Source: Bacteroidia bacterium (GTDB lineage: Bacteria; Bacteroidota; Bacteroidia; Flavobacteriales; Flavobacteriaceae). Taken from it: 64,000 nucleotides of DNA. The stretch spans positions 13,920 through 77,919 of the forward strand of contig JAUIKY010000011.1 in NCBI GenBank assembly GCA_030430535.1. The letters are read 5' to 3'. A program made the translations under genes and the position numbers. Below are positions 1,852 through 12,444 of the stretch, piece by piece. Positions within the stretch are counted from its first letter, which is position 1. Every line of letters starts with the position of its first letter. The notes under the pieces were generated by a model. It had not been told where the DNA came from. It ran no database searches and worked only from the letters and a program-made list of their open reading frames with translations.

Positions 1852-3315
1852 ATGGGAAAAGTAACCGGATTTAAAGAATTTGACAGACAAGATGAACAAT
1901 ACACCCCTGTTCAAGACAGGGTAAAACATTATAAAGAATTTACAGTTCCATTAAGCGAAGAAGAAATTACCAAACAAGGCTCTCGTTGTATGGATTGCGG
2001 TATTCCTTTTTGCCATAGTGGTTGCCCGCTAGGTAATTTAATACCCGATTTTAACCACATGGTACACCAAGGTGAATGGCAAAAAGCCTCTTGGTTATTG
2101 CATGCCACCAACAACTTCCCAGAATTTACCGGAAGATTGTGTCCTGCGCCTTGCGAAAAATCATGTGTATTGGGTATTATAGAAGACCCCGTATCCATCG
2201 AAAACATCGAAAAGCAAATTGTGGAGCGCGCTTTCGCAGAAGGTTGGATAAAACCCCAACCACCAAAAACCAGAACAGGAAAAACCATTGCCGTTGTTGG
2301 CTCAGGTCCTGCTGGATTGGCTGCCGCACAACAACTTAATCGTGCTGGTCACACCGTAACCGTTTTTGAAAGAGACGACGAAATCGGTGGGCTTTTACGC
2401 TACGGTATTCCTAACTTCAAAATGGAAAAGGAAATTATAGACCGTCGTTTAGCCATTTTGGAAGCCGAAGGTATCACCTTTAAAACCAATGTTAACGTTG
2501 GCGTTAATTACGACACCAAAGAGCTTAAGGCTTTTGATGCCGTTGTGCTTTGTGGTGGCGCAACCGAAAGACGCAGCTTACCAACCCCAGGCATTGATGC
2601 CGATGGTGTGGTACAAGCCATGGATTTCTTAACCCAGCAAACCAAGGTATTATTTGGTAAAAAAGTAGAAAACCAAGTAATGGCTACCGACAAAAACGTC
2701 ATTGTTATTGGTGGTGGTGATACGGGATCTGACTGCGTTGGAACCTCGAACCGTCACGGCGCAAAATCGGTGGTAAATTTCGAAATTATGCCGAAACCAC
2801 CAGGGCACCGTTCGCCAACCACACCTTGGCCATTCTGGCCTTTGCAGCTTAAAACATCGTCTTCGCACGAAGAAGGCGTGGAGCGTAACTGGCTGATAAA
2901 CACCAAAGAGTTTATTACAGACGAAAACAACAAATTAACCGCACTTAAAACGGTTAACGTGGAGTGGAAAATGGTTCCAGGTGAGCGCCCTCAATTAATT
3001 GAAGTACCAGGCACCGAAAAAACTTGGCCATGCGATTTAGCGTTATTAGCGCTAGGTTTTACAGGACCAGAAAGCACTTTAGCTGATAAGTTAGGCATTG
3101 AGCGCGATGCCCGTTCTAACTATAAAGCGGAATACGGAAAGTACCAAACCAATATCCCTAACATCTTTACGGCTGGCGATATGCGTCGTGGACAGTCGCT
3201 AATTGTTTGGGCTATTTCTGAAGGCCGCGAGGCCGCCCGACAGGTTGACATTTTCTTGATGGGTAAATCAGACCTGCCAACAAAAGATATGGCTGGCGAT
3301 TTGGTTGCACTTTAA
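1852..3315 (+). CDS. gltD: Glutamate synthase small subunit
   Basis: RCMDCGIPFCHSGCP and GRLCPAPCE Fe-S motifs, GSGPAG and GGGDTG Rossmann motifs. Confidence 0.97.
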   Translation: MGKVTGFKEFDRQDEQYTPVQDRVKHYKEFTVPLSEEEITKQGSRCMDCGIPFCHSGCPLGNLIPDFNHMVHQGEWQKASWLLHATNNFPEFTGRLCPAPCEKSCVLGIIEDPVSIENIEKQIVERAFAEGWIKPQPPKTRTGKTIAVVGSGPAGLAAAQQLNRAGHTVTVFERDDEIGGLLRYGIPNFKMEKEIIDRRLAILEAEGITFKTNVNVGVNYDTKELKAFDAVVLCGGATERRSLPTPGIDADGVVQAMDFLTQQTKVLFGKKVENQVMATDKNVIVIGGGDTGSDCVGTSNRHGAKSVVNFEIMPKPPGHRSPTTPWPFWPLQLKTSSSHEEGVERNWLINTKEFITDENNKLTALKTVNVEWKMVPGERPQLIEVPGTEKTWPCDLALLALGFTGPESTLADKLGIERDARSNYKAEYGKYQTNIPNIFTAGDMRRGQSLIVWAISEGREAARQVDIFLMGKSDLPTKDMAGDLVAL

Positions 3316-3378: not shown

Positions 3379-4128
3379 TTATAAATTAATCAACTTTTTT
3401 AAAAAACCTTCTTTACTGCTTAATGACACTTTTACTTTTTCAGCATTACTCATTACAGCGTATGGCGGTTTTGTTTTTGTGTATTTTTTAACGTGACTTA
3501 GGTTTACCAAACACGATTGACTTACCCTGTAAAAACCACTTTCCTTTAGCATTTCTTCAAAACGTTTTAAAGTTTTTGAACTTGTTATTTTCTTTCCGTT
3601 TTCAATGTAAATATCAGTATAATTTACTTTAGCTTCACAATAAATAACACTAGAAACATCTAAAACAACACATTCGTTAGCAGTGTTTACGCTTATACGT
3701 TTTTTGGCAGCATCTTCTTTTAAATTATAAAGTAATGTATCTATTTTTTTATTTATATCGTCAGTAGAATTTTGAGATTCCAACCTACTTACAACCTCAT
3801 CAAAATCATCTAAACAAATAGGTTTTAATAAATAATGAAGCGCCGCAAATTTAAACGCTTTTACAGCATATTTACTGTAAGCTGTAGTGAAAACTACCGT
3901 AAAATTTAAATGTTTTACTTGTTGCAAATACTCAAAACCTGTTTGATTATTAATCTCAACATCTAAAAAAACTAAATCTGGGTTTAGAATATTTGTTGCT
4001 TCAACCGCATTAGCAACGTTTGTACATGTTTTTACAACATTAAAAACATGACTGTATTTATTGGTTAGTTTCAACAAAGCATCAATGCAATGCTGCTCAT
4101 CATCTATAATTAATGTGTTAATCTTCAT
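3379..4128 (-). CDS. LytR/AlgR-family response regulator (REC + LytTR)
   Basis: IIDDE and FLDVEI receiver motifs, FTTAY, KP; C-terminal YCEAKVNYT...FYRVSQSCLVNL LytTR pattern. Confidence 0.92.
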   Translation of the reverse strand: MKINTLIIDDEQHCIDALLKLTNKYSHVFNVVKTCTNVANAVEATNILNPDLVFLDVEINNQTGFEYLQQVKHLNFTVVFTTAYSKYAVKAFKFAALHYLLKPICLDDFDEVVSRLESQNSTDDINKKIDTLLYNLKEDAAKKRISVNTANECVVLDVSSVIYCEAKVNYTDIYIENGKKITSSKTLKRFEEMLKESGFYRVSQSCLVNLSHVKKYTKTKPPYAVMSNAEKVKVSLSSKEGFLKKLINL

Positions 4129-6172
4129 TTAAATATGCTAACTGAAAAGGCAATATTACTTCAACTCTTGTACCTAAGCTTTTATTGATAATTTTAATTT
4201 GTGCATTTATATTTTTGGTTTTGTTTAAAACCGAAATTCTATCGTTTGTAATTTTAACACCCAATGATTTGTGCGCCGTATTGTTTTTGTTTATAGGTGT
4301 TATTCCAACACCGTTATCATCTACACTGTAACACAGCTGTTCGTTGTTTATTTTTTTAATTTGAATAGTAATTACACCAGCCCCATTAAGTTTTGATACA
4401 CCGTGCCAAATACTATTTTCAACAAACGGTTGCATAATCATTGATGGTACCAAAACGTTACCTTTATCAATGCCATCATCAATTTTAATTTCATAATTAA
4501 ATCCGTTGGGAATGCGTTCTTTTTCGATATCTAAATAATTCTCTAACAGTTTTATATCTTCTTCAATAGTGATATTTTCACACATAGACACCTCTAGTGT
4601 TTGTCGCATTAGTTTAGAAAATTTAGTAAGGTAATTTGAAGCATCATCAACCTTATTACTAACAATATAATTATTTATAGAATTTAGTGTATTGAAAATG
4701 AAATGCGGATTCATTTGTGCTCGTAGCGCTTTTAATTCGGTTGTAGCAACTTTGGTGTTAAAATCGGCTTCTCGTTTTTTCTTATAAAAAACCGTTAACC
4801 CGATTATGAAACATAAAACAATGCCACCACCTGCTAGATATGTGTTTTTTATAAATTCTTGCCTCTCTAACTCATTTGCAAAAAGCAACTGCTCTTGTTT
4901 GTGATTATTTTCTAGTATATTTTTTTCATTTTGATACTTGTATTTTTCTTCAAGCCTTATTAATTCCTCTTTCTTTTCAATAGAATTAAAACTGTCTTTT
5001 AATTTAACAGCTTCATTAATATAATTATATGCGTTTTTATAGTTTTTTAATAGCTTGTTTACTGTTGCTAACCCTTCTAAAGCTGATACTTGCAATGATA
5101 AGCTTTTTGATTTTTTAGCTAAACCATAAGCCCTTTGATAATGACTTTTAGCTTTATCCAAACTGCTTGTGTTTAAATAACTTTCGGCCATGTACTCATA
5201 AACTATGGCTAAATTATTGGTATTGCCAAGGGTTTCATAAAGCGCTTTAGCTTTATTAAAATTGTTTAGCGCTTCGTTATGTTTTTTTAAGCCAACGTTT
5301 ACAATACCTATATTGGTTAAGGCATTGGCCATTCCTAATCTATTACCGCTTTTTTGCATTATACCATATGATTTTTGGTAATAATCAATGGCTTTTTGTT
5401 GTTGTTTTAAATAATCATAAATATTACCAATATTGTTATAACTATTAGCTAAACCGTATTTATAATCTAAAGTTTCGTAAATTTTTGAAGCTTTTTCATG
5501 ATATACTAATGCCTTATTGTACGTTTGTAACTTAGTATATAAAATTCCAAGATTTTGGGTGGTGTTAGCAAAATCTAAACTAAGGGTGTCTTTTAAATTT
5601 TTATAAATAGTGAGTGCTTCTAAATATTTTGACAAAGACGATGGATAGTCAGACAAATACATATAATTTATACCTATACTATTGAGCATTTTTGCCATCA
5701 ACACACTATCATTTGCTTTTTTAAATGCATCAAAAGCTTCAACATTACACTTATTAGCCTTCACATAATTACTTTTATTAAAATAGATGAGCCCCTTATT
5801 GTAAATGAGTCTTGCCTGTTTATTGTAGTTATTGGCAGCTTTATAAATTTTACCTGCCTTATCATACATTGCTAATGCCATAGAATCATTACCAATTGTT
5901 GAGTAATTATGCCCCTTGTATTGGTATGCTCTTGCCTCTTTATCTGTGTCTTTTAAACTTTTGGCAAGTATGAGGGCTTCATCTAAAACTTTTAACCCTT
6001 TTTCAGCATTAATGGAATAGTAATAATACCCTAAATCCGTTAACAAATTCAATCTTATAGAATCTGCCAACTTGGGGTTTAGCAATTGGTTTTCCAAAGA
6101 GTCAATGTCTCTTTGTTGAGCCACCAAAATAGCGCTTAGTAAAAAAAACAAGTAGCTTATTTTTTTAAACAT
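4118..6172 (-). CDS. TPR-repeat LytS-type sensor histidine kinase
   Basis: Signal peptide MFKKISYLFFLL (start chosen over 6214), multiple TPR repeats, one TM segment, LRAQMNPHFIFNTLNSI H-box, QPFVENSIWHG and VDDNGVG boxes. Confidence 0.9.
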   Translation of the reverse strand: MFKKISYLFFLLSAILVAQQRDIDSLENQLLNPKLADSIRLNLLTDLGYYYYSINAEKGLKVLDEALILAKSLKDTDKEARAYQYKGHNYSTIGNDSMALAMYDKAGKIYKAANNYNKQARLIYNKGLIYFNKSNYVKANKCNVEAFDAFKKANDSVLMAKMLNSIGINYMYLSDYPSSLSKYLEALTIYKNLKDTLSLDFANTTQNLGILYTKLQTYNKALVYHEKASKIYETLDYKYGLANSYNNIGNIYDYLKQQQKAIDYYQKSYGIMQKSGNRLGMANALTNIGIVNVGLKKHNEALNNFNKAKALYETLGNTNNLAIVYEYMAESYLNTSSLDKAKSHYQRAYGLAKKSKSLSLQVSALEGLATVNKLLKNYKNAYNYINEAVKLKDSFNSIEKKEELIRLEEKYKYQNEKNILENNHKQEQLLFANELERQEFIKNTYLAGGGIVLCFIIGLTVFYKKKREADFNTKVATTELKALRAQMNPHFIFNTLNSINNYIVSNKVDDASNYLTKFSKLMRQTLEVSMCENITIEEDIKLLENYLDIEKERIPNGFNYEIKIDDGIDKGNVLVPSMIMQPFVENSIWHGVSKLNGAGVITIQIKKINNEQLCYSVDDNGVGITPINKNNTAHKSLGVKITNDRISVLNKTKNINAQIKIINKSLGTRVEVILPFQLAYLNED

Positions 6173-6252
6173 AAAAGGGGTAAAATATTGCTGTTGAACC
6201 AAATATATAAACAATAGAAAGAATACACTGCTAACATGTAATAAAAAATACG

Positions 6253-6285
6253 CAAATAATAAATGGAATCAGCCAAATAATAAAT
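6253..6285. promoter_or_regulatory. Direct repeat with 21-bp period, candidate LytTR binding site
   Basis: CAAATAATAAAT at 6253-6264 and 6274-6285. Confidence 0.4.
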
Positions 6286-6713
6286 TTAGGTATTCTATTA
6301 ATAGCTGCGGTATTATTTTTAAAAAGCTATTAATTAATCCCGACCACAATGAAATCTTTACCCCATAGAAGTATTAACAATTTGTTGTTTGTTCCTTTTA
6401 TTATAAATTTTCAACTCGCTTTCTTTCAACCAAAAAGTATCGAATCTACTGAAAGAAACTATACACAAAAGTATTAAGCCTCTTTCTAGACCAATTTATT
6501 GGTTTGCGCAAAAAACATTTGTTTATGATAGCTTACAACCAGTATAGAGATAAACATATCCTCTGAAGATAATGTACAAATAGAGTAGAAATTAATTTAA
6601 ACAACCTTTAGTAAATACTTCCTAATTTATTCGAACACTACAGCACACTTAAAAGAAACAAAAAGTTTCTGCTAATCTTTACAAACCTTTAACAAACATT
6701 AAATTTTAACATT

Positions 6714-7235
6714 ATGAAACAATTCTTTCTTCTTGCAATTACATTATTTGTCTTATCATTTACACAAAACACCAACGCTCAAGGCATGGTCGATTCTGAA
6801 TCTTTTGGTGCGGGAGTGCAGTACAACTCCCTGTTTTATGGCTTAAGTGCCAAGTACAATTTCACTGAAGTACACAGTGGGGAGTTAGTTGTTGGGGGCG
6901 GTAATTACGGGTTTGCAGGCAGCTTCAATTCGTTTACCATTACCGGAAGATATCTTTACAATTTTAAAGTTGAGGACAATTACAGAATTTACGGTTTTGG
7001 TCAATTGGGATACTGGACACTGAAATATGATTACTCAGCCTTTGGAGTAAACTATGATGATAGCTACAATTCTATTTCGTATGGTGCTGGTGCAGGAATA
7101 GAATACGCTTTTGACGGATTGGAACAACTTGGGTTTAATGCCGAAATAGGCTACGGAGGCGGTTCGTTTGAAGATGGACTTGGCTATTCGGGCATCATCT
7201 TTGGTGTTGGTGCACATTACTATTTCTCATTTTAG
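6714..7235 (+). CDS. Small outer-membrane beta-barrel protein
   Basis: Signal peptide (TNA-Q), alternating aromatic/Gly strands, C-terminal GVGAHYYFSF. Confidence 0.75.
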   Translation: MKQFFLLAITLFVLSFTQNTNAQGMVDSESFGAGVQYNSLFYGLSAKYNFTEVHSGELVVGGGNYGFAGSFNSFTITGRYLYNFKVEDNYRIYGFGQLGYWTLKYDYSAFGVNYDDSYNSISYGAGAGIEYAFDGLEQLGFNAEIGYGGGSFEDGLGYSGIIFGVGAHYYFSF

Positions 7236-7298
7236 CACCTTTCTAATTTCGGGCACTGGTTTGTAAATTGCCTCGGGGCCCTAACTTATTAATACAGT

Positions 7299-8993
7299 AT
7301 GATGACTACAAAACACAACAACCGGATTTTTTTGTTTCTTATTTTTACAGCGCTATCATGGTCTTCAATAGGCCAAAACTTAAACAGCCTTGTCGATACC
7401 ATTGCCGCATCACTTCAAACGGTAGAAGATTCAAAATTCGAGTACAGCCAAAACCTAAAATTATTATCTAACAACTATGTAAACTATACGGTAACCTCAG
7501 TGGATTCTAAAGGAAAAACCGAAGAAACTGCATATAATTTCAGCTTTGCTGATGTGGACGTTAATACTGTAAGATCATTAACCGAAAAGGATGTTATCGT
7601 TGTTCAACTTTTAATAAGCGGCAAGCAAAAACTTATAAAGGAAACGACCAACAATGGCGAGAAAGTAGATTATATTGACGAGGTTGTCTTTTACGCCAAA
7701 AACATAGAGAATGCTCGTAATTTAGTGGATGCCATAAAAACATTAATCCCAATTAACGACACCCTCGAAAAGAACAAGTTAGCCCTTCACACTTACGATG
7801 ACCATATAATATGGCTCGAGGAAAACATTCAGGACGTCGATTTCACCAAGACACAAATCGTCCAAAAAATTGTACCCGGAGATGTAAAGAATGGTCACTT
7901 AAAGCTGAGCACAACCATCAACTCAAAAAGCAAGACCAAAGCTTACGATTACGAGTTTAATTTGGCCACTTTAAACCCAAACAGCGTAGCTTTTAAAATT
8001 AGTGGCGACGAATTTTACATTGAGGCTTCAAACCGTCGAAACATAAAAGCCATCAAAGCTTTTGAAGACGGTGCTCAGCAAAATTACACCAACGATATTC
8101 GCTTTTACTGTACTTCGGTAGAAAATGCAAAAGACCTTCATAAAGTGCTAACGCAAACTATTCCCTTGGCTGAAAAAGCCTTTGAAAATACCAAACCCAA
8201 AATTACCTCAACCAAAGAAGCCATAACTTTTTTAAACCAGGCCATAGGTTCGATTACAAGTGGTGAGACCACTTACACCCAAAGCATTGAAGGCGATTGC
8301 GTAACTAAAATAATTATAAAAGAAGCCAACCCTAAAGAAACCGTTGATAACACGTACAGCTTTAATTTTAACGATATTAACGTCGACAACATAGATTACG
8401 ATTCTAATAAAACCGAACTGTATGTTGAAGTAAACACAAGAAAAAAGTCAAAGTTTATTAGGCATGTCGAAAATAACGAACTTCAAAATTACACCGATGC
8501 GTTAAAAATCTACTTCAATAACATTGAAGACGCCCTTACAGCCAAAGAGGCATTACAAAACATCACAAAAAACTGCGAAACCTATCAAGGCATGGCTAGT
8601 ATAAAATCTATTCCTAGCGGGCTGGAAGCGCTAAAAAATGAAATTATCTTGGTTAAAATAGCAGACGATGCGTTCGACCAATCTTTTGAGGTTGTAAGTA
8701 CCTCGCCCTATACGGTAAAACTAACCTCGGTATTTTCCAACCTAAAAAACAGTAAAGAAACCATTTATGAATTCGGTTTGGGCGATATCAACCCGAAAAA
8801 TATAAACATTGTTACCTCAGGTAAAGAAGTTATGGTTGAACTGAACACCAAGCACCTTGAAAAAATTATAAAAACCTACGAAGACGGCGAAATAAAGAGC
8901 TACGCATACAACATTGAAATTCAAGCTACCGATATTGAAAATGCCCGTAGCATCGCCAATCTTTTAAAACAAGTTTCAGAAAAAATTGAATAA
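7299..8993 (+). CDS. Exported hypothetical protein with four tandem repeats of about 135 aa
   Basis: Signal peptide; four copies of YxF...N ... K(F/L/A/I)I...NY ... (I/V)ENA motif. Confidence 0.7.
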   Translation: MMTTKHNNRIFLFLIFTALSWSSIGQNLNSLVDTIAASLQTVEDSKFEYSQNLKLLSNNYVNYTVTSVDSKGKTEETAYNFSFADVDVNTVRSLTEKDVIVVQLLISGKQKLIKETTNNGEKVDYIDEVVFYAKNIENARNLVDAIKTLIPINDTLEKNKLALHTYDDHIIWLEENIQDVDFTKTQIVQKIVPGDVKNGHLKLSTTINSKSKTKAYDYEFNLATLNPNSVAFKISGDEFYIEASNRRNIKAIKAFEDGAQQNYTNDIRFYCTSVENAKDLHKVLTQTIPLAEKAFENTKPKITSTKEAITFLNQAIGSITSGETTYTQSIEGDCVTKIIIKEANPKETVDNTYSFNFNDINVDNIDYDSNKTELYVEVNTRKKSKFIRHVENNELQNYTDALKIYFNNIEDALTAKEALQNITKNCETYQGMASIKSIPSGLEALKNEIILVKIADDAFDQSFEVVSTSPYTVKLTSVFSNLKNSKETIYEFGLGDINPKNINIVTSGKEVMVELNTKHLEKIIKTYEDGEIKSYAYNIEIQATDIENARSIANLLKQVSEKIE

Positions 8994-9035
8994 CCGAAAA
9001 TACAGCTATTAATTAATCCTTTAAATTTTAAAACA

Positions 9036-10163
9036 ATGAAAACAAAACAGTTACTCTCAATCTTAACAGTATTTTGTACTGTTTTATTAATGCGCTCTTA
9101 TTTGCAAGCCCAAACCACTTGGCGTGTAAACAACCAATCGAATTACGATGGCACCACAAACTTTGGCGAAAATTACGGCGGCACTCCTAGCTTCCCAGTA
9201 TTTAGCGAAATAAATGAAGCTGTTGCCTATCCCAATGTAACGACAGGCGATACACTACACGTTGAAGGCTCTACGGCTGTATATGCAGACGCTACTATAA
9301 CCAAGCACTTAGTGGTAATCGGTCCAGGGTATTTTTTAACAGAAAACCCTAAAGTTTCAAATAACACTTATGATGCTAAAATAGGAAGGGTAATATTTGA
9401 TAGTGGTTCGGAATCTTCTCAACTTATTGGAATGAATGTCCTATATGACGGAAGCAGCGTTGATGGGATTGTATATGTAAACGTTAATGGCATTACCATT
9501 AAAAGATGTAGGATAGACCGCTACGTAAGGCCGGACACCCAACTAACAGACATCTATATACTCCAAAACTTTTTTACCAATACGTACAACACTAGTGCTA
9601 TAACTGATACCGGAAGCAGCTCATACATTCCGCCTCAAGATATCGTTTTCAACAACAATATTTGTCAGAAAAAACTAATATGGTCGGATAGTTCTTGGGG
9701 CATAGGTACTATTATGGAGTGCAACAATAATGTTTTTGATGGCCCTGCAAACGAGTTAAACCTAGAATTCAACACAGGTTCCTTCCAAAATAACATTTTA
9801 AAGGCGGCAGGTATAACCGCTAATATTAACAATGGCACCAACAACAATGTGCAATATAATTCGGTATCAACCTCAGGTGTGTTTGATGGCACTACTGGCA
9901 ACCTCTGGGTACCCAGCATGGCTACTTTGTTTGTTACAGAAGGCACTACAGATGGTTTGTATCAACTACAATCCGGATCAAGCTATAACCAAACAGGTAG
10001 CGATGGCGCTGAGCGTGGCGCTTTTGGTGGTGTCGTGGTTACCAACCAATACAATTTATCTGGCTTAGGTGCCATTCCCGTGGTTTACGATGTTACTACT
10101 ACAGGTGTGTCTGAACCCGGTACGGGTCTATCGGTAACTGTTAAAGCACGAACCAATAACTAA
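9036..10163 (+). CDS. Exported protein with probable right-handed parallel beta-helix
   Basis: Signal peptide (LQA-Q); GDTLHVEG..Y.....ITKHLVVIGPGY start typical of pectin-lyase-like folds; Asn-rich NN ladder repeats. Confidence 0.6.
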   Translation: MKTKQLLSILTVFCTVLLMRSYLQAQTTWRVNNQSNYDGTTNFGENYGGTPSFPVFSEINEAVAYPNVTTGDTLHVEGSTAVYADATITKHLVVIGPGYFLTENPKVSNNTYDAKIGRVIFDSGSESSQLIGMNVLYDGSSVDGIVYVNVNGITIKRCRIDRYVRPDTQLTDIYILQNFFTNTYNTSAITDTGSSSYIPPQDIVFNNNICQKKLIWSDSSWGIGTIMECNNNVFDGPANELNLEFNTGSFQNNILKAAGITANINNGTNNNVQYNSVSTSGVFDGTTGNLWVPSMATLFVTEGTTDGLYQLQSGSSYNQTGSDGAERGAFGGVVVTNQYNLSGLGAIPVVYDVTTTGVSEPGTGLSVTVKARTNN

Positions 10164-10169
10164 TTTGCC

Positions 10170-11156
10170 ATGAAACGGATTATCATAACAGCCATTTTAT
10201 TGGCCATAACACTAGGTATCCGTGCCCAATCCAACACTACCCAAATTGAATACTTTTTGGATGTCGACAATGGATTTGGACAGAACACGGTAATTGATAT
10301 TGCATCGCCCGATATAGACATTACCGAAACCGTATTGGCAGATATTCCTTCTGGCACTTCGGTAGGTTATCACAAACTCTATATGCGGGTAAAGGATGCC
10401 GACGGAAACTGGAGCCAAACCATCAGAAAGCATATTGAAATTGTAGCGCCCTTTGTGGAAAACAATATTGTTATGGGCGAGTATTTTATCGATGAAGACT
10501 ACCAATACGGTACTGGAACATCGTTTGGCATTGACCCTGAAACGGATGATATTGAACAAGCGTTTACCGCACAAATAACGGCAAATGCACCATTGGGCTA
10601 TCACAAACTTTACGGAAGAGTAAAAGATGCTTACGGCAATTGGAGCCATACTTTCAGAAAAAATATCGAAGTTTACAAAAACCCAAATACCAATCTTGTA
10701 GAAATTGAATACTTTTTTGAGGATGACTCAGGGTTTGGCAATAACACTATTGTCAACATTGAGGAACCTGAAAACGACGGTACATGGACGTTTAACGTGC
10801 CTTACCCCACGGGCGATTACAATTTTGAAGATGTTCTTTTTCTACGGGTGAAAGATTCTAACGGAAATTGGTCCATCACCACAACTGTTGATGAAATAGC
10901 AACTTTAGGAGTTGATGATTTCTTACAGAAGTCCACTTTACTGTATCCTAACCCTTTTAACGAACAGCTAAACATGAGGCTAACCGAAAACGTTAATGTT
11001 CTAAAAACCGTAATCCATAATAATTTAGGGCAAACAGTTTACTCAAGTACAGAAAACAAAACTACTTTAAACGTTGAGCACCTAAAAAGCGGTTTGTATA
11101 TCTTAAATCTAAAAACTGATATGGGCACAGCCTCTTTTAAAATTGTTAAAAAGTAA
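10170..11156 (+). CDS. T9SS type A sorting domain protein with three EYFxD-repeat (Ig-like) modules
   Basis: Signal peptide; 3x EYF..D.G(F/Y)G ... RVKD..GNWS.T; C-terminal LYPNP...YILNL...KIVKK CTD. Confidence 0.8.
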   Translation: MKRIIITAILLAITLGIRAQSNTTQIEYFLDVDNGFGQNTVIDIASPDIDITETVLADIPSGTSVGYHKLYMRVKDADGNWSQTIRKHIEIVAPFVENNIVMGEYFIDEDYQYGTGTSFGIDPETDDIEQAFTAQITANAPLGYHKLYGRVKDAYGNWSHTFRKNIEVYKNPNTNLVEIEYFFEDDSGFGNNTIVNIEEPENDGTWTFNVPYPTGDYNFEDVLFLRVKDSNGNWSITTTVDEIATLGVDDFLQKSTLLYPNPFNEQLNMRLTENVNVLKTVIHNNLGQTVYSSTENKTTLNVEHLKSGLYILNLKTDMGTASFKIVKK

Positions 11157-11433
11157 AAGACACACCAATATAATACGACTGTGTTTCGACACCTCAATCA
11201 ATTAAAAATCAATCAATTTTGATGAGGTTGATTAAACCCAAACCGATTTTAACAGTCATACTATTGTACTATTAATTAAAAAGTTAAAATCATGAACTTT
11301 ATTTTGCTAGTACAGCTCTATTGAGAGCTTTAAATGTAAAATTGCTATTCTCAGTGGTCTGCTATGTTGGGGGAAATAAAAATGCGAGCTTTTCGGCTCG
11401 CATTTTTCATATTTACAATCAGTTTAATACTAT

Positions 11434-12444
11434 TTATTTCTGTGCGTTTCGCATAAACTCTTCGGCCTTTTCAACCATGTTTTTACTTCCGCAGATAAAT
11501 GGCACACGTTCATGGAGTTCAGTGGGTTGTATATCCAAAATTCGGGTCTTGCCATCGCTGGCCTTTCCGCTGGCCTGCTCTGCCAAAAACGCCATAGGGT
11601 TGCATTCGTATAGTAAACGCAACTTACCCTTTGGGTTTCTCGAGCCTTGAGGGTAAAGATAAATACCGCCTTTAATCATATTACGATGAAAATCGGAAAC
11701 CAACGAACCAATGTAACGCGAAGTATAGGGCCTATCGCCTTCCTCTTTTTGGCAATATTTTATGTAGTCTTTAATGCCTTGCGGAAAATCGATATAATTC
11801 CCTTCGTTTACCGAATAGATTTTACCATCCTCGGGAAACTGCATATCGGGATGAGACAAATAAAACGAACCAATGGCCGGGTTTAGCGTAAACCCATTAA
11901 CCCCAGCGCCAGTAGTGTAAACAAGCATGGTAGAGGTGCCATAAACCACATAACCCGCGGCTACTTGCTGGCTCCCTTTCTGAAGAAAATCTTTAAGTTG
12001 CACTGGAGTGCCCACAGGAGTTACACGTCTATAGATTGAAAAAATAGTACCTACCGATACGTTAACATCTATATTTGAAGAGCCGTCCAAAGGATCAATC
12101 AACACGACATACTTGTTTCCATGACTCTCGTCTTGGCTGTTAACAGTTATAAAATCATCTTCCTCCTCACTGGCAATACCGCAAACAATATTACGCTTGG
12201 TTAAGGTTTGTATAAACTTTTCGTTGGCATAAACATCCAGTTTTTGCTGGTCTTCCCCTTGAATGTTAGTATCGCCCGCAGCACCAATAATATCAACCAG
12301 CCCTGCTTTATTAACCTCGTGATTCACTACTTTTGCAGCCAGTCTAATAGAATTTAACAAACTGGATAATTCCCCTGAAGAATATCTAAACGCAGCTTGG
12401 TTTTCAATAATAAATTCGCCTAAAGTTTGTTTTTTATGTGCCAT
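11434..12444 (-). CDS. fbp: Class 1 fructose-1,6-bisphosphatase
   Basis: [39 protein letters not shown] motifs. Confidence 0.96.

Follow-up and report, generated by a model that had tools for sequence, protein, structure and literature searches.

A candidate LytTR-regulated surface-protein module of Bacteroidota and a passenger cassette at its promoter in the gltD-fbp interval

Gene content and composite origin of the locus

The locus between gltD and fbp was analysed at positions 3379-11156 of a 64,000-nt stretch of DNA (the window), which is part of a 3.6-Mb, 98.8%-complete genome assembly. Six open reading frames (ORFs) are found there. A LytTR response regulator and a TPR-containing sensor histidine kinase of the LytS type are encoded on the minus strand. 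Divergent from them, on the plus strand, are the genes for four proteins that each open with a signal-peptide-like segment: a small outer-membrane beta-barrel (OMP173), a protein of four repeated domains (REP564), a beta-helix protein (BH375) and a type IX secretion system (T9SS) cargo protein with a C-terminal sorting domain (CTD328; the domain is abbreviated CTD). The flanking genes are gltD (1852-3315) on the left and fbp (11434-12444, minus strand) on the right. This layout agrees with a preliminary description made from the sequence alone, which had placed the six ORFs at the same coordinates between the same flanks, with the same domains and signal peptides, and had remarked on an AT-rich kinase/regulator pair. 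ORF calls and Pfam searches returned the same genes, and the GC content of the pair and of the 499-bp intergenic region is 27-30%, compared to 38.8% for the genome and 37-41% for the exported genes. The four exported genes are separated by gaps of 63, 42 and 6 nt, and no terminator-like site was found in any gap of the rightward gene set, including the one between the operator promoter and OMP173. A short inverted repeat at 11372-11407, between the convergent CTD328 and fbp genes, has matches in both orientations in relatives and is probably a bidirectional terminator shared by the two genes.

The preliminary description had further treated the six genes as one self-contained locus, which could not be upheld, as the set of six co-occurs in no other genome examined. 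The locus is composite and joins two units. Module A, comprising the TPR/LytS-type kinase, the LytTR regulator, BH375 and CTD328, recurs across Bacteroidota, these four genes alone making up the broadly conserved part. Module B, comprising OMP173 and REP564, is a separate cassette of narrow distribution among marine flavobacteria, usually accompanied by a TPR/HisKA_3-GerE regulator pair of its own. The reading favoured here, with rather more confidence than doubt, is that the locus represents a regulated surface-protein module conserved across Bacteroidota, in which a passenger cassette has come to lie behind the LytTR switch.

The synteny of module A was examined by scanning an alignment of the beta-helix family against species-representative genomes, giving 68 loci whose neighbouring genes were annotated by local searches; contigs with relatives of REP564 and BH375 were examined as well. 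Many of the 68 loci belong to related metagenome-assembled genomes (MAGs), and the counts therefore overstate independence. A homologue of CTD328 comes after the beta-helix gene in 65 of the 65 loci with enough downstream sequence, mostly at a gap of 5-8 nt. A TPR kinase with a LytS-type His_kinase domain is present within 8 kb in 33 of the 54 loci that have at least 5 kb of upstream flank. It is accompanied by a regulator with receiver (REC) and LytTR domains in 31 of these 33 and is divergent and upstream of the beta-helix gene in 32, with nothing in between in 11. The linkage of kinase and beta-helix gene is not due to chance, because the whole genome contains only four kinases with a PF06580 domain, that of the locus among them. 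It holds in marine Flavobacteriaceae and in Chitinophagaceae. The proposal that the LytTR pair is linked to the adjacent exported genes is accordingly upheld by synteny across two Bacteroidota classes, together with the LytTR-type paired-repeat operator found in the divergent gap.

Several variants of module A were observed in Ferruginibacter. One MAG has the order regulator-kinase and, divergently, CsgG, beta-helix gene, partner and an ORF that consists of a LytTR domain only. A gene for a CsgG-family lipoprotein also separates the operator from the beta-helix gene in L016/L037 and L041, where the partner has no detectable T9SS CTD, and this lipoprotein may be an alternative export route. Another MAG (JANPIJ010000323.1) contains, at approximately 5200-11900 of the extracted locus, three tandem triplets of beta-helix gene, partner and LytTR-only ORF (121-130 aa). 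A LytTR-only ORF follows the partner directly in six more Ferruginibacter loci (L016, L040, L041, L048, L049 and L056), and these ORFs recall LytTR-only anti-activators such as BlpS.

At 90% identity the REP564 family of module B falls into 54 clusters, every one of them from marine Flavobacteriaceae (Tamlana, Algibacter, Winogradskyella, Psychroserpens, Flavivirga and Polaribacter). Orthologues of OMP173 (41-53% identity) precede REP564 orthologues in six loci (L006, L007, L008, L009, L011 and L013), while REP564 is found alone in Psychroserpens and Winogradskyella. In Tamlana sp. 62-3 the two genes occur without module A, beside a divergent TPR/HisKA_3 kinase and GerE regulator, and in one further genome they are accompanied by a co-directional HisKA_3/GerE pair. 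The gene order in a same-genus relative is gltD, LytTR regulator, LytS-type kinase, GerE regulator and HisKA_3 kinase, followed divergently by OMP, REP, beta-helix gene and partner. Module B is therefore nested there, with its own regulator, between the regulators and the targets of module A, and the same nesting is seen in Algibacter, Flaviramulus and a JGI MAG. The GerE system (approximately 3.5 kb) is missing from the window, and no orthologue was found in the 98.8%-complete assembly, where the best match was 37%.

The divergent intergenic region

The gap between the kinase gene and the exported genes contains two direct repeats, ACGCAAATAATAAATGG (6250-6266) and AGCCAAATAATAAATTT (6271-6287), which share a motif of about GCAAAWAATAAATGG at a period of exactly 21 bp. 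Together they form a predicted LytTR operator on the plus strand at 6250-6287, located 78 nt from the kinase start and pointing toward the exported genes. An unbiased repeat search over periods 10-40 revealed direct repeats of at least 9/10 at a period of exactly 21 bp in the kinase-proximal gaps of 12 of 36 loci, compared to 0.4 in shuffles, with no other period exceeding 3 loci. The operator consensus across loci is nnGCAAAWAATAAATGG. A weight matrix was built from the sites found, the window's own site included (2 of 62 instances). With this matrix, the highest-scoring pair of an entire 10-20-kb locus fell in the gap between kinase and beta-helix gene, in the orientation of the latter and at spacing 21, in approximately 29 of 37 non-redundant loci. 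The pair at 6250-6287 is the only one to reach at least 25 bits in the 3.6-Mb genome when both strands and spacings of 15-30 are searched.

The kinase is not adjacent in three of the loci (L033, L067 and L016), and there the repeat pair is found directly before the beta-helix operon, which ties the operator to the beta-helix gene and not to the kinase promoter. The enriched words GCAAAnAA had also been considered as a -7 promoter box of the kinase, an assignment that was dropped in view of the strict 21-bp pairing and of these cases. The sites of LytTR regulators consist of a pair of repeats, each of 9-11 nt, with 11-13 nt between them (PMC4847170), and AgrA binds within the divergent agr intergenic region (PMC4227749); the layout of the window pair matches this published architecture (PMC4847170, PMC4227749). 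In a same-genus genome (G003, contig C64), the repeat pair beside the LytS-type kinase, at approximately 7440-7780 of locus L013, points into the 3' end of a convergent GerE/HisKA_3 operon. A LytTR promoter at that position would yield antisense RNA to the GerE/HisKA_3 system and could cause transcriptional interference between the two regulators.

A second conserved element, the leader motif AGCTATTAATTAATCC, is present in two copies on the plus strand. The first (6325-6340) lies 38 nt past the operator and the second (9004-9019) lies 16 nt before the start codon of BH375, in the 42-nt gap after REP564. Both are followed by ACAATGAAA, so that the DNA behind the first copy resembles the BH375 start. 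The 16-mer occurs nowhere else in the genome, and the 15-mer within it, GCTATTAATTAATCC, likewise has exactly two genomic occurrences (6326-6340 and 9005-9019). In Flavobacteriaceae, (A)GCTATTAATTAATCC is found approximately 16 nt before the start codon of the beta-helix gene regardless of which gene lies upstream, and in Chitinophagaceae TTAATC recurs at about -23. The spacing in simple loci is constant, with 38-39 nt from operator to motif and 15-16 nt from motif to ATG, and the window shares the first of these distances. As the primary LytTR operator the 15-mer was rejected, being a single element of partly palindromic sequence with the start codon just 16 nt away, and it is retained as a putative leader or initial transcribed element. 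The consensus of the Bacteroidota -7 promoter element is TAnnTTTG. The sequence TATTTTTA at 6314-6321 (plus strand) could be a box of this type for the rightward transcript, which would place the transcript start near 6325, and comparable TAnnTTTA boxes occupy the same place ahead of the leader motif in two other loci (L024 and L027).

Comparison with Tamlana crocina revealed how the cassette may have been inserted. The intergenic regions of T. crocina and the window are 90% identical at the nucleotide level and the cassettes are different, OMP-REP being replaced in T. crocina by p434-p175-DUF6175-p311-CTD711-DUF6252-p177; homology resumes at 8996, just before BH375. T. crocina contains the same two leader copies along with a third, decayed one, which extends 39 nt into the beta-helix coding sequence. 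This 80-nt fossil (CP158972; 2710-2789 of locus L015) is 89% identical, consists of the beta-helix leader and 39 nt of coding sequence, and lies before the first gene of the alternative cassette, where it marks a recombination junction. In the window, a 42-codon ORF of doubtful coding status (6349-6477, plus strand) is situated behind the first leader copy. It has the same length in T. crocina, with approximately 60% amino acid identity compared to approximately 85% DNA identity, and is probably also a fossil of a beta-helix start left at such a junction; the poor conservation at the protein level did not support its assignment as a signal peptide gene. These arrangements suggest that cassettes are inserted and exchanged by recombination within the leader and start of the beta-helix gene, with promoter, operator and one copy of the leader remaining next to the kinase throughout.

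The DUF6175 protein of the alternative cassette gave nothing useful in a PDB sequence search, and a possible relation to the CsgG of the Ferruginibacter loci was dropped for want of similarity. In Winogradskyella pulchriflava (L005), the leader-type sequences GCTATTAATCAATT and GCTATTAATTAATT (10715 and 11316) are found 29 nt before the starts of two genes for DUF6252-like small exported proteins, which come after the REP564 orthologue.

The OMP-REP cassette of the window lies between two copies of the beta-helix leader. Together with the absence of the GerE system, this position suggests that all four exported genes are read from the LytTR-controlled promoter, probably as one transcript. It could instead be supposed that OMP173-REP564 keeps its own promoter and is functionally unrelated to module A, having come to its position by chance as cassettes were shuffled in a recombination hot spot. 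Consistent with this, module B is found without module A in L006, L004, L003 and L005, the gltD-fbp interval contains differing cassettes in close relatives, and the approximately 235 nt at 6478-6713 could house a promoter. However, only some 25-85 nt of native DNA (from about 6689) are retained upstream of OMP173, the cognate regulator has been lost from a nearly complete genome, and the operator promoter is not separated from OMP173 by any terminator-like site. Accidental neighbourhood is therefore considered unlikely, and the cassette is treated below as a passenger of the LytTR-controlled operon.

The regulators and the exported proteins

The response regulator (249 aa; 3379-4128, minus strand) contains Response_reg (4.9e-15, 56.1 bits) and LytTR (3.6e-17, 62.8 bits) domains, both scoring above the Pfam cut-offs, and the receiver residues D9/D10, D56, T83 and K102 can be read from its sequence. 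Its best NCBIfam matches were BtsR and LytR, both far under their cut-offs. The kinase (4118-6172, minus strand) matched TPR_12 (2.7e-36), His_kinase PF06580 (1.7e-23; 83.1 bits compared to a cut-off of 25.2, and 88.7 bits in the genome search) and, weakly, HATPase_c (4.4e-4; 21.1 bits compared to a cut-off of 26.4). The open frame extends over 4118-6214 and begins at a TTG at 6214; translation probably starts from the ATG at 6172, which gives a signal-like N-terminus. The hydrophobicity profile contains a signal/anchor segment and a single transmembrane helix at residues 457-478 of the 698-aa frame, indicating that the TPR region of approximately 420 residues is periplasmic; no match to the polytopic sensor domain 5TM-5TMR_LYT was found in the kinase. 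The best NCBIfam match was FimS NF053520 (E 4.7e-28), which covered the TPR region only and gave 97.8 bits compared to a cut-off of 600. TPR sensors are carried by approximately 6 of the approximately 30 kinases of the genome.

Decay of the pair, considered on account of its low GC content, was ruled out by intact frames, key residues and 86-91% identity to Tamlana crocina and Seonamhaeicola (in T. crocina, 91% for the regulator over the available part and 90% at the amino acid level for the kinase). The 29%-GC kinase allele of the window is common only to these two. Compared to a same-genus relative, the kinase is 35% and the beta-helix protein 87% identical. The fast divergence of the kinase and the narrow distribution of its allele suggest that the sensor has been exchanged independently of its targets. 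The gltD gene is 98.6% identical to that of the same-genus relative, with 54% for the adjoining regulator, 35-40% for the kinase and a GC content of 29% compared to 37%, a pattern that resembles the replacement of one sensor-system allele by another inside a flank that is itself conserved.

The preliminary description had assigned the four exported proteins as a beta-helix protein, a T9SS cargo, a small beta-barrel and a four-repeat protein, and each assignment was confirmed. The AlphaFold (AF2) model of BH375 (375 aa; 9036-10163, plus strand) is a right-handed beta-helix with a pLDDT (predicted local distance difference test) of 81.5, in which the helix turns cover residues 28-330. The C-terminal tail of approximately 45 aa (residues 333-375) is nearly invariant yet has a pLDDT below 50. 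BH375 is Sec-exported, has no CTD and gave no sequence match in Pfam, NCBIfam or the PDB, and 40 members of its family had no Pfam match. The family comprises 1373 representative clusters at E<=1e-3 and reaches from Flavobacteriaceae to Chitinophagaceae with identities of at least 50%. Its conservation and a set of invariant charged residues (R30, D72, E77, K90, K156, R157, D306, D323 and R327) lead us to lean toward a specific activity over that of a generic adhesin.

The partner, CTD328 (328 aa; 10170-11156, plus strand), is a type-A cargo of the T9SS with a CTD at residues 258-328 (Por_Secre_tail PF18962, 1.8e-11, 44.6 bits; TIGR04183, 47.2 bits). Ahead of the CTD are three N-terminal immunoglobulin (Ig)-like repeats (EYFxDxDxGxG ... 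HKLYxRVKD) of approximately 43% identity with faint similarity to Y_Y_Y; a PDB sequence search gave nothing useful. The genome encodes the T9SS component SprA (SprA_N, 401 bits in a 2436-aa frame) and approximately 51 CTD ORFs. None of BH375, REP564 and OMP173 carries a Por_Secre_tail/TIGR04183 domain. Two relatives of BH375, P0087 and P0136, exist in a one-chain form of beta-helix, Ig/PKD domains and CTD. P0087 is a natural fusion of beta-helix, one partner repeat and CTD with no internal signal peptide, in which the beta-helix tail forms the internal linker ahead of the partner repeat. As BH375 and CTD328 are always adjacent, coupled and, in P0087, fused, they were taken as one functional unit delivered to the surface by the T9SS. 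The arrangement suggests that the two proteins act together at the surface, probably as one complex.

One possible form of this unit, offered tentatively and more as a doubtful than as an expected outcome, is a split T9SS cargo. BH375 would dock through its invariant tail on the partner in the periplasm and cross the outer membrane with the partner's CTD, and the TPR kinase may monitor the assembly, thereby completing a loop of feedback. The literature searched contained nothing relevant on piggy-back (hetero-oligomeric, hitch-hiking) export by the T9SS, and a review of the system describes the movement of folded proteins with no mention of passenger export (PMC9251779).

An enzymatic role of BH375 was considered in the light of its fold. 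BH375 could be a polysaccharide lyase, hydrolase or esterase mounted on the Ig-like stalks of its T9SS partner, which would make the locus a glycan-degrading mini-locus induced by a polysaccharide or by fragments of one, in the manner of a polysaccharide utilization locus (PUL) sensor. The host group comprises marine degraders of algal polysaccharides. Foldseek matched BH375, with probabilities of 0.95-1.0, to PL6 alginate lyases (7dmk, TMq 0.42-0.47), to pectin methylesterases and to tailspike depolymerases of phages or tail fibres, many charged residues are invariant, and the protein is more conserved than the regulators, as expected of an enzyme. However, every fold match had E>1e-3 and a TM score of at most 0.47, below 0.5, and no Pfam, NCBIfam or CAZy-type family, such as PL6, PL1, CE8 or GH28, was matched in the 40 members. 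The conserved core lacks SusC/SusD genes and other CAZymes, and the family occurs at 50% identity in soil and freshwater Chitinophagaceae, so that the substrate would not be an alga-specific glycan. On balance a dedicated glycan-degrading locus is improbable, and a surface unit whose beta-helix may bind or modify glycans is preferred.

A second beta-helix/partner pair is encoded outside the window at C96:33059-38038 (L014:9060-14039), where overlapping genes for a diverged beta-helix protein (378 aa) and an Ig-repeat CTD protein (406 aa) are followed by a co-directional TPR/HisKA_3 kinase and GerE regulator. The pair of the window and this paralogous pair indicate that such pairs associate with TPR-sensor kinases of two output classes. 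BH375 and CTD328 might be more than an output and act as co-sensors or signal generators for the TPR kinase, giving an auto-inducing circuit like the peptide quorum-sensing LytTR systems; the periplasmic TPR domain could, for example, bind the C-terminal tail of BH375 or a product of beta-helix activity. Peptides are common ligands of TPR domains, and circuits of the agr, com and blp types are autoinducing, with the operator in their own locus. Both pairs adjoin TPR kinases of different output even though few kinases of the genome have TPR sensors, the tail combines near-invariance with a low pLDDT, and the genome's only operator of its type lies in the locus itself, as in autoinducing circuits (agr: PMC4227749). 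However, the genome offers a sample of two pairs, the use of the tail as an internal linker in P0087 is easier to reconcile with a structural contact to the partner than with release as a ligand, and TPR domains diverge fast while the tail hardly varies. Little weight is therefore given to a feedback role, and BH375 and CTD328 are regarded as targets of the switch.

OMP173 (173 aa; 6714-7235, plus strand) matched the OMP_b-brl family PF13505 with 31.0 bits compared to a cut-off of 28.7, and its N-terminal signal ends NAQ-G. REP564 (564 aa; 7299-8993, plus strand) gave no match in Pfam, NCBIfam or PDB sequences, and a profile of its repeats found no solved relative among PDB sequences. The protein consists of four internal repeats of approximately 135 aa (pairwise identity 28-32%, E 1e-6 to 5e-14), and its AlphaFold (AF2) model, with a pLDDT of 91.2, contains four similar alpha/beta domains, each composed of a short helix, 7-8 antiparallel strands and a long helix. 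Foldseek with the whole four-domain model returned only noise (TM approximately 0.1), the RseB and SRPBCC-type matches being hints at best. The domain is unique within its own genome.

Proposed regulation and relation to known systems

The genes present and their synteny statistics, the operator and leader motifs and how unique they are, the protein folds and the existence of a fusion protein were all computed directly. From them we infer binding of the regulator, the start and read-through of transcription, formation of a complex, location at the surface and biochemical activity, as follows. A periplasmic signal would be sensed by the TPR domain of the kinase, which would phosphorylate the LytTR regulator. 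A regulator dimer would bind the two 17-bp direct repeats at 6250-6287 and activate the rightward promoter, giving a transcript that starts near 6325 and opens with the conserved leader. The operator probably also controls the divergent kinase operon, which would be autoregulated. In what appears to be the ancestral layout, and is the commonest, the leader is followed immediately by the beta-helix gene, to which the partner is translationally coupled; in the window one LytTR-controlled transcript probably spans OMP173, REP564, BH375 and CTD328. CTD328 would supply the T9SS sorting domain and the Ig-like spacers, and the beta-helix would be the working part, binding or modifying glycans.

Several observations weigh against this scheme. 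No LytS-type kinase is present within 8 kb in 21 of the 54 beta-helix loci, including all those of Draconibacterium/Prolixibacteraceae, and the paralogous pair on contig C96 of the same genome adjoins a HisKA_3/GerE system; the LytTR link is accordingly frequent and not obligatory. The kinase changes far more quickly than the beta-helix protein, and the two are not strictly co-inherited. The Ferruginibacter partners lack a detectable CTD, the fold matches of the modelled beta-helix are generic and point to no catalytic site, the leader motif is too near the start codon to serve as an activator site of the classical kind, and the stretch 6478-6713 could contain a promoter for OMP173.

The unit is compact, consisting of kinase, LytTR regulator, operator, leader and a pair of exported proteins. 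It is found again in hundreds of Bacteroidota, from marine Flavobacteriaceae to soil and freshwater Chitinophagaceae, and carries no family annotation; full-text literature searches found no description of module A. No studied LytTR regulon in Bacteroidota was found in the literature searched, and the unit offers a directly testable one, in which each genome has a single predicted site and the target is known. It also provides a natural system for asking whether the T9SS exports a CTD-less protein through a CTD-bearing partner, and an example of how passenger cassettes may change regulator through exchange at the leader of a regulated operon. Two sizeable unannotated protein families are brought to light, those of the beta-helix (approximately 1400 representative clusters) and of the four-repeat protein.

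The regulatory logic is ordinary and is that of the known LytTR systems. As in AgrC/AgrA, ComD/ComE, BlpH/BlpR, YpdA/YpdB and BtsS/BtsR, the regulator combines REC and LytTR domains, and the kinase shares the PF06580 core of YpdA, BtsS and LytS. The two direct repeats of approximately 10-17 bp, with their 21-bp period and location in a divergent intergenic region, are likewise those of LytTR systems (PMC4847170, PMC4227749). The sensor is different, consisting of approximately 420 aa of periplasmic TPR and a single transmembrane helix in place of the 5TM-LytS or polytopic peptide-receptor domain. Unlike the agr, com and blp circuits, the conserved core contains no autoinducer peptide precursor or processing/export genes, and its targets, a beta-helix protein and a T9SS cargo, differ from those of the known LytTR systems.

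The closest parallel for the sensor is FimS/FimR of Porphyromonas gingivalis, in which a TPR sensor kinase controls fimbrial genes, as both are Bacteroidota kinases with a periplasmic TPR region that control or, in the present locus, would control surface-structure genes. The kinase of the locus is not a member of NF053520, however, and both the kinase core and the regulator class differ, FimR belonging to a class other than LytTR. CTD328 resembles single-chain T9SS cargo built of beta-helix, Ig/PKD domains and CTD in having a type-A CTD in a genome with SprA, whereas the window and nearly all relatives encode the beta-helix and the CTD part as two Sec-exported proteins. What is new in comparison with these systems is the TPR sensor, the Bacteroidota setting, the split target of beta-helix and T9SS partner, the conserved leader and the apparent capture of an orphaned cassette.

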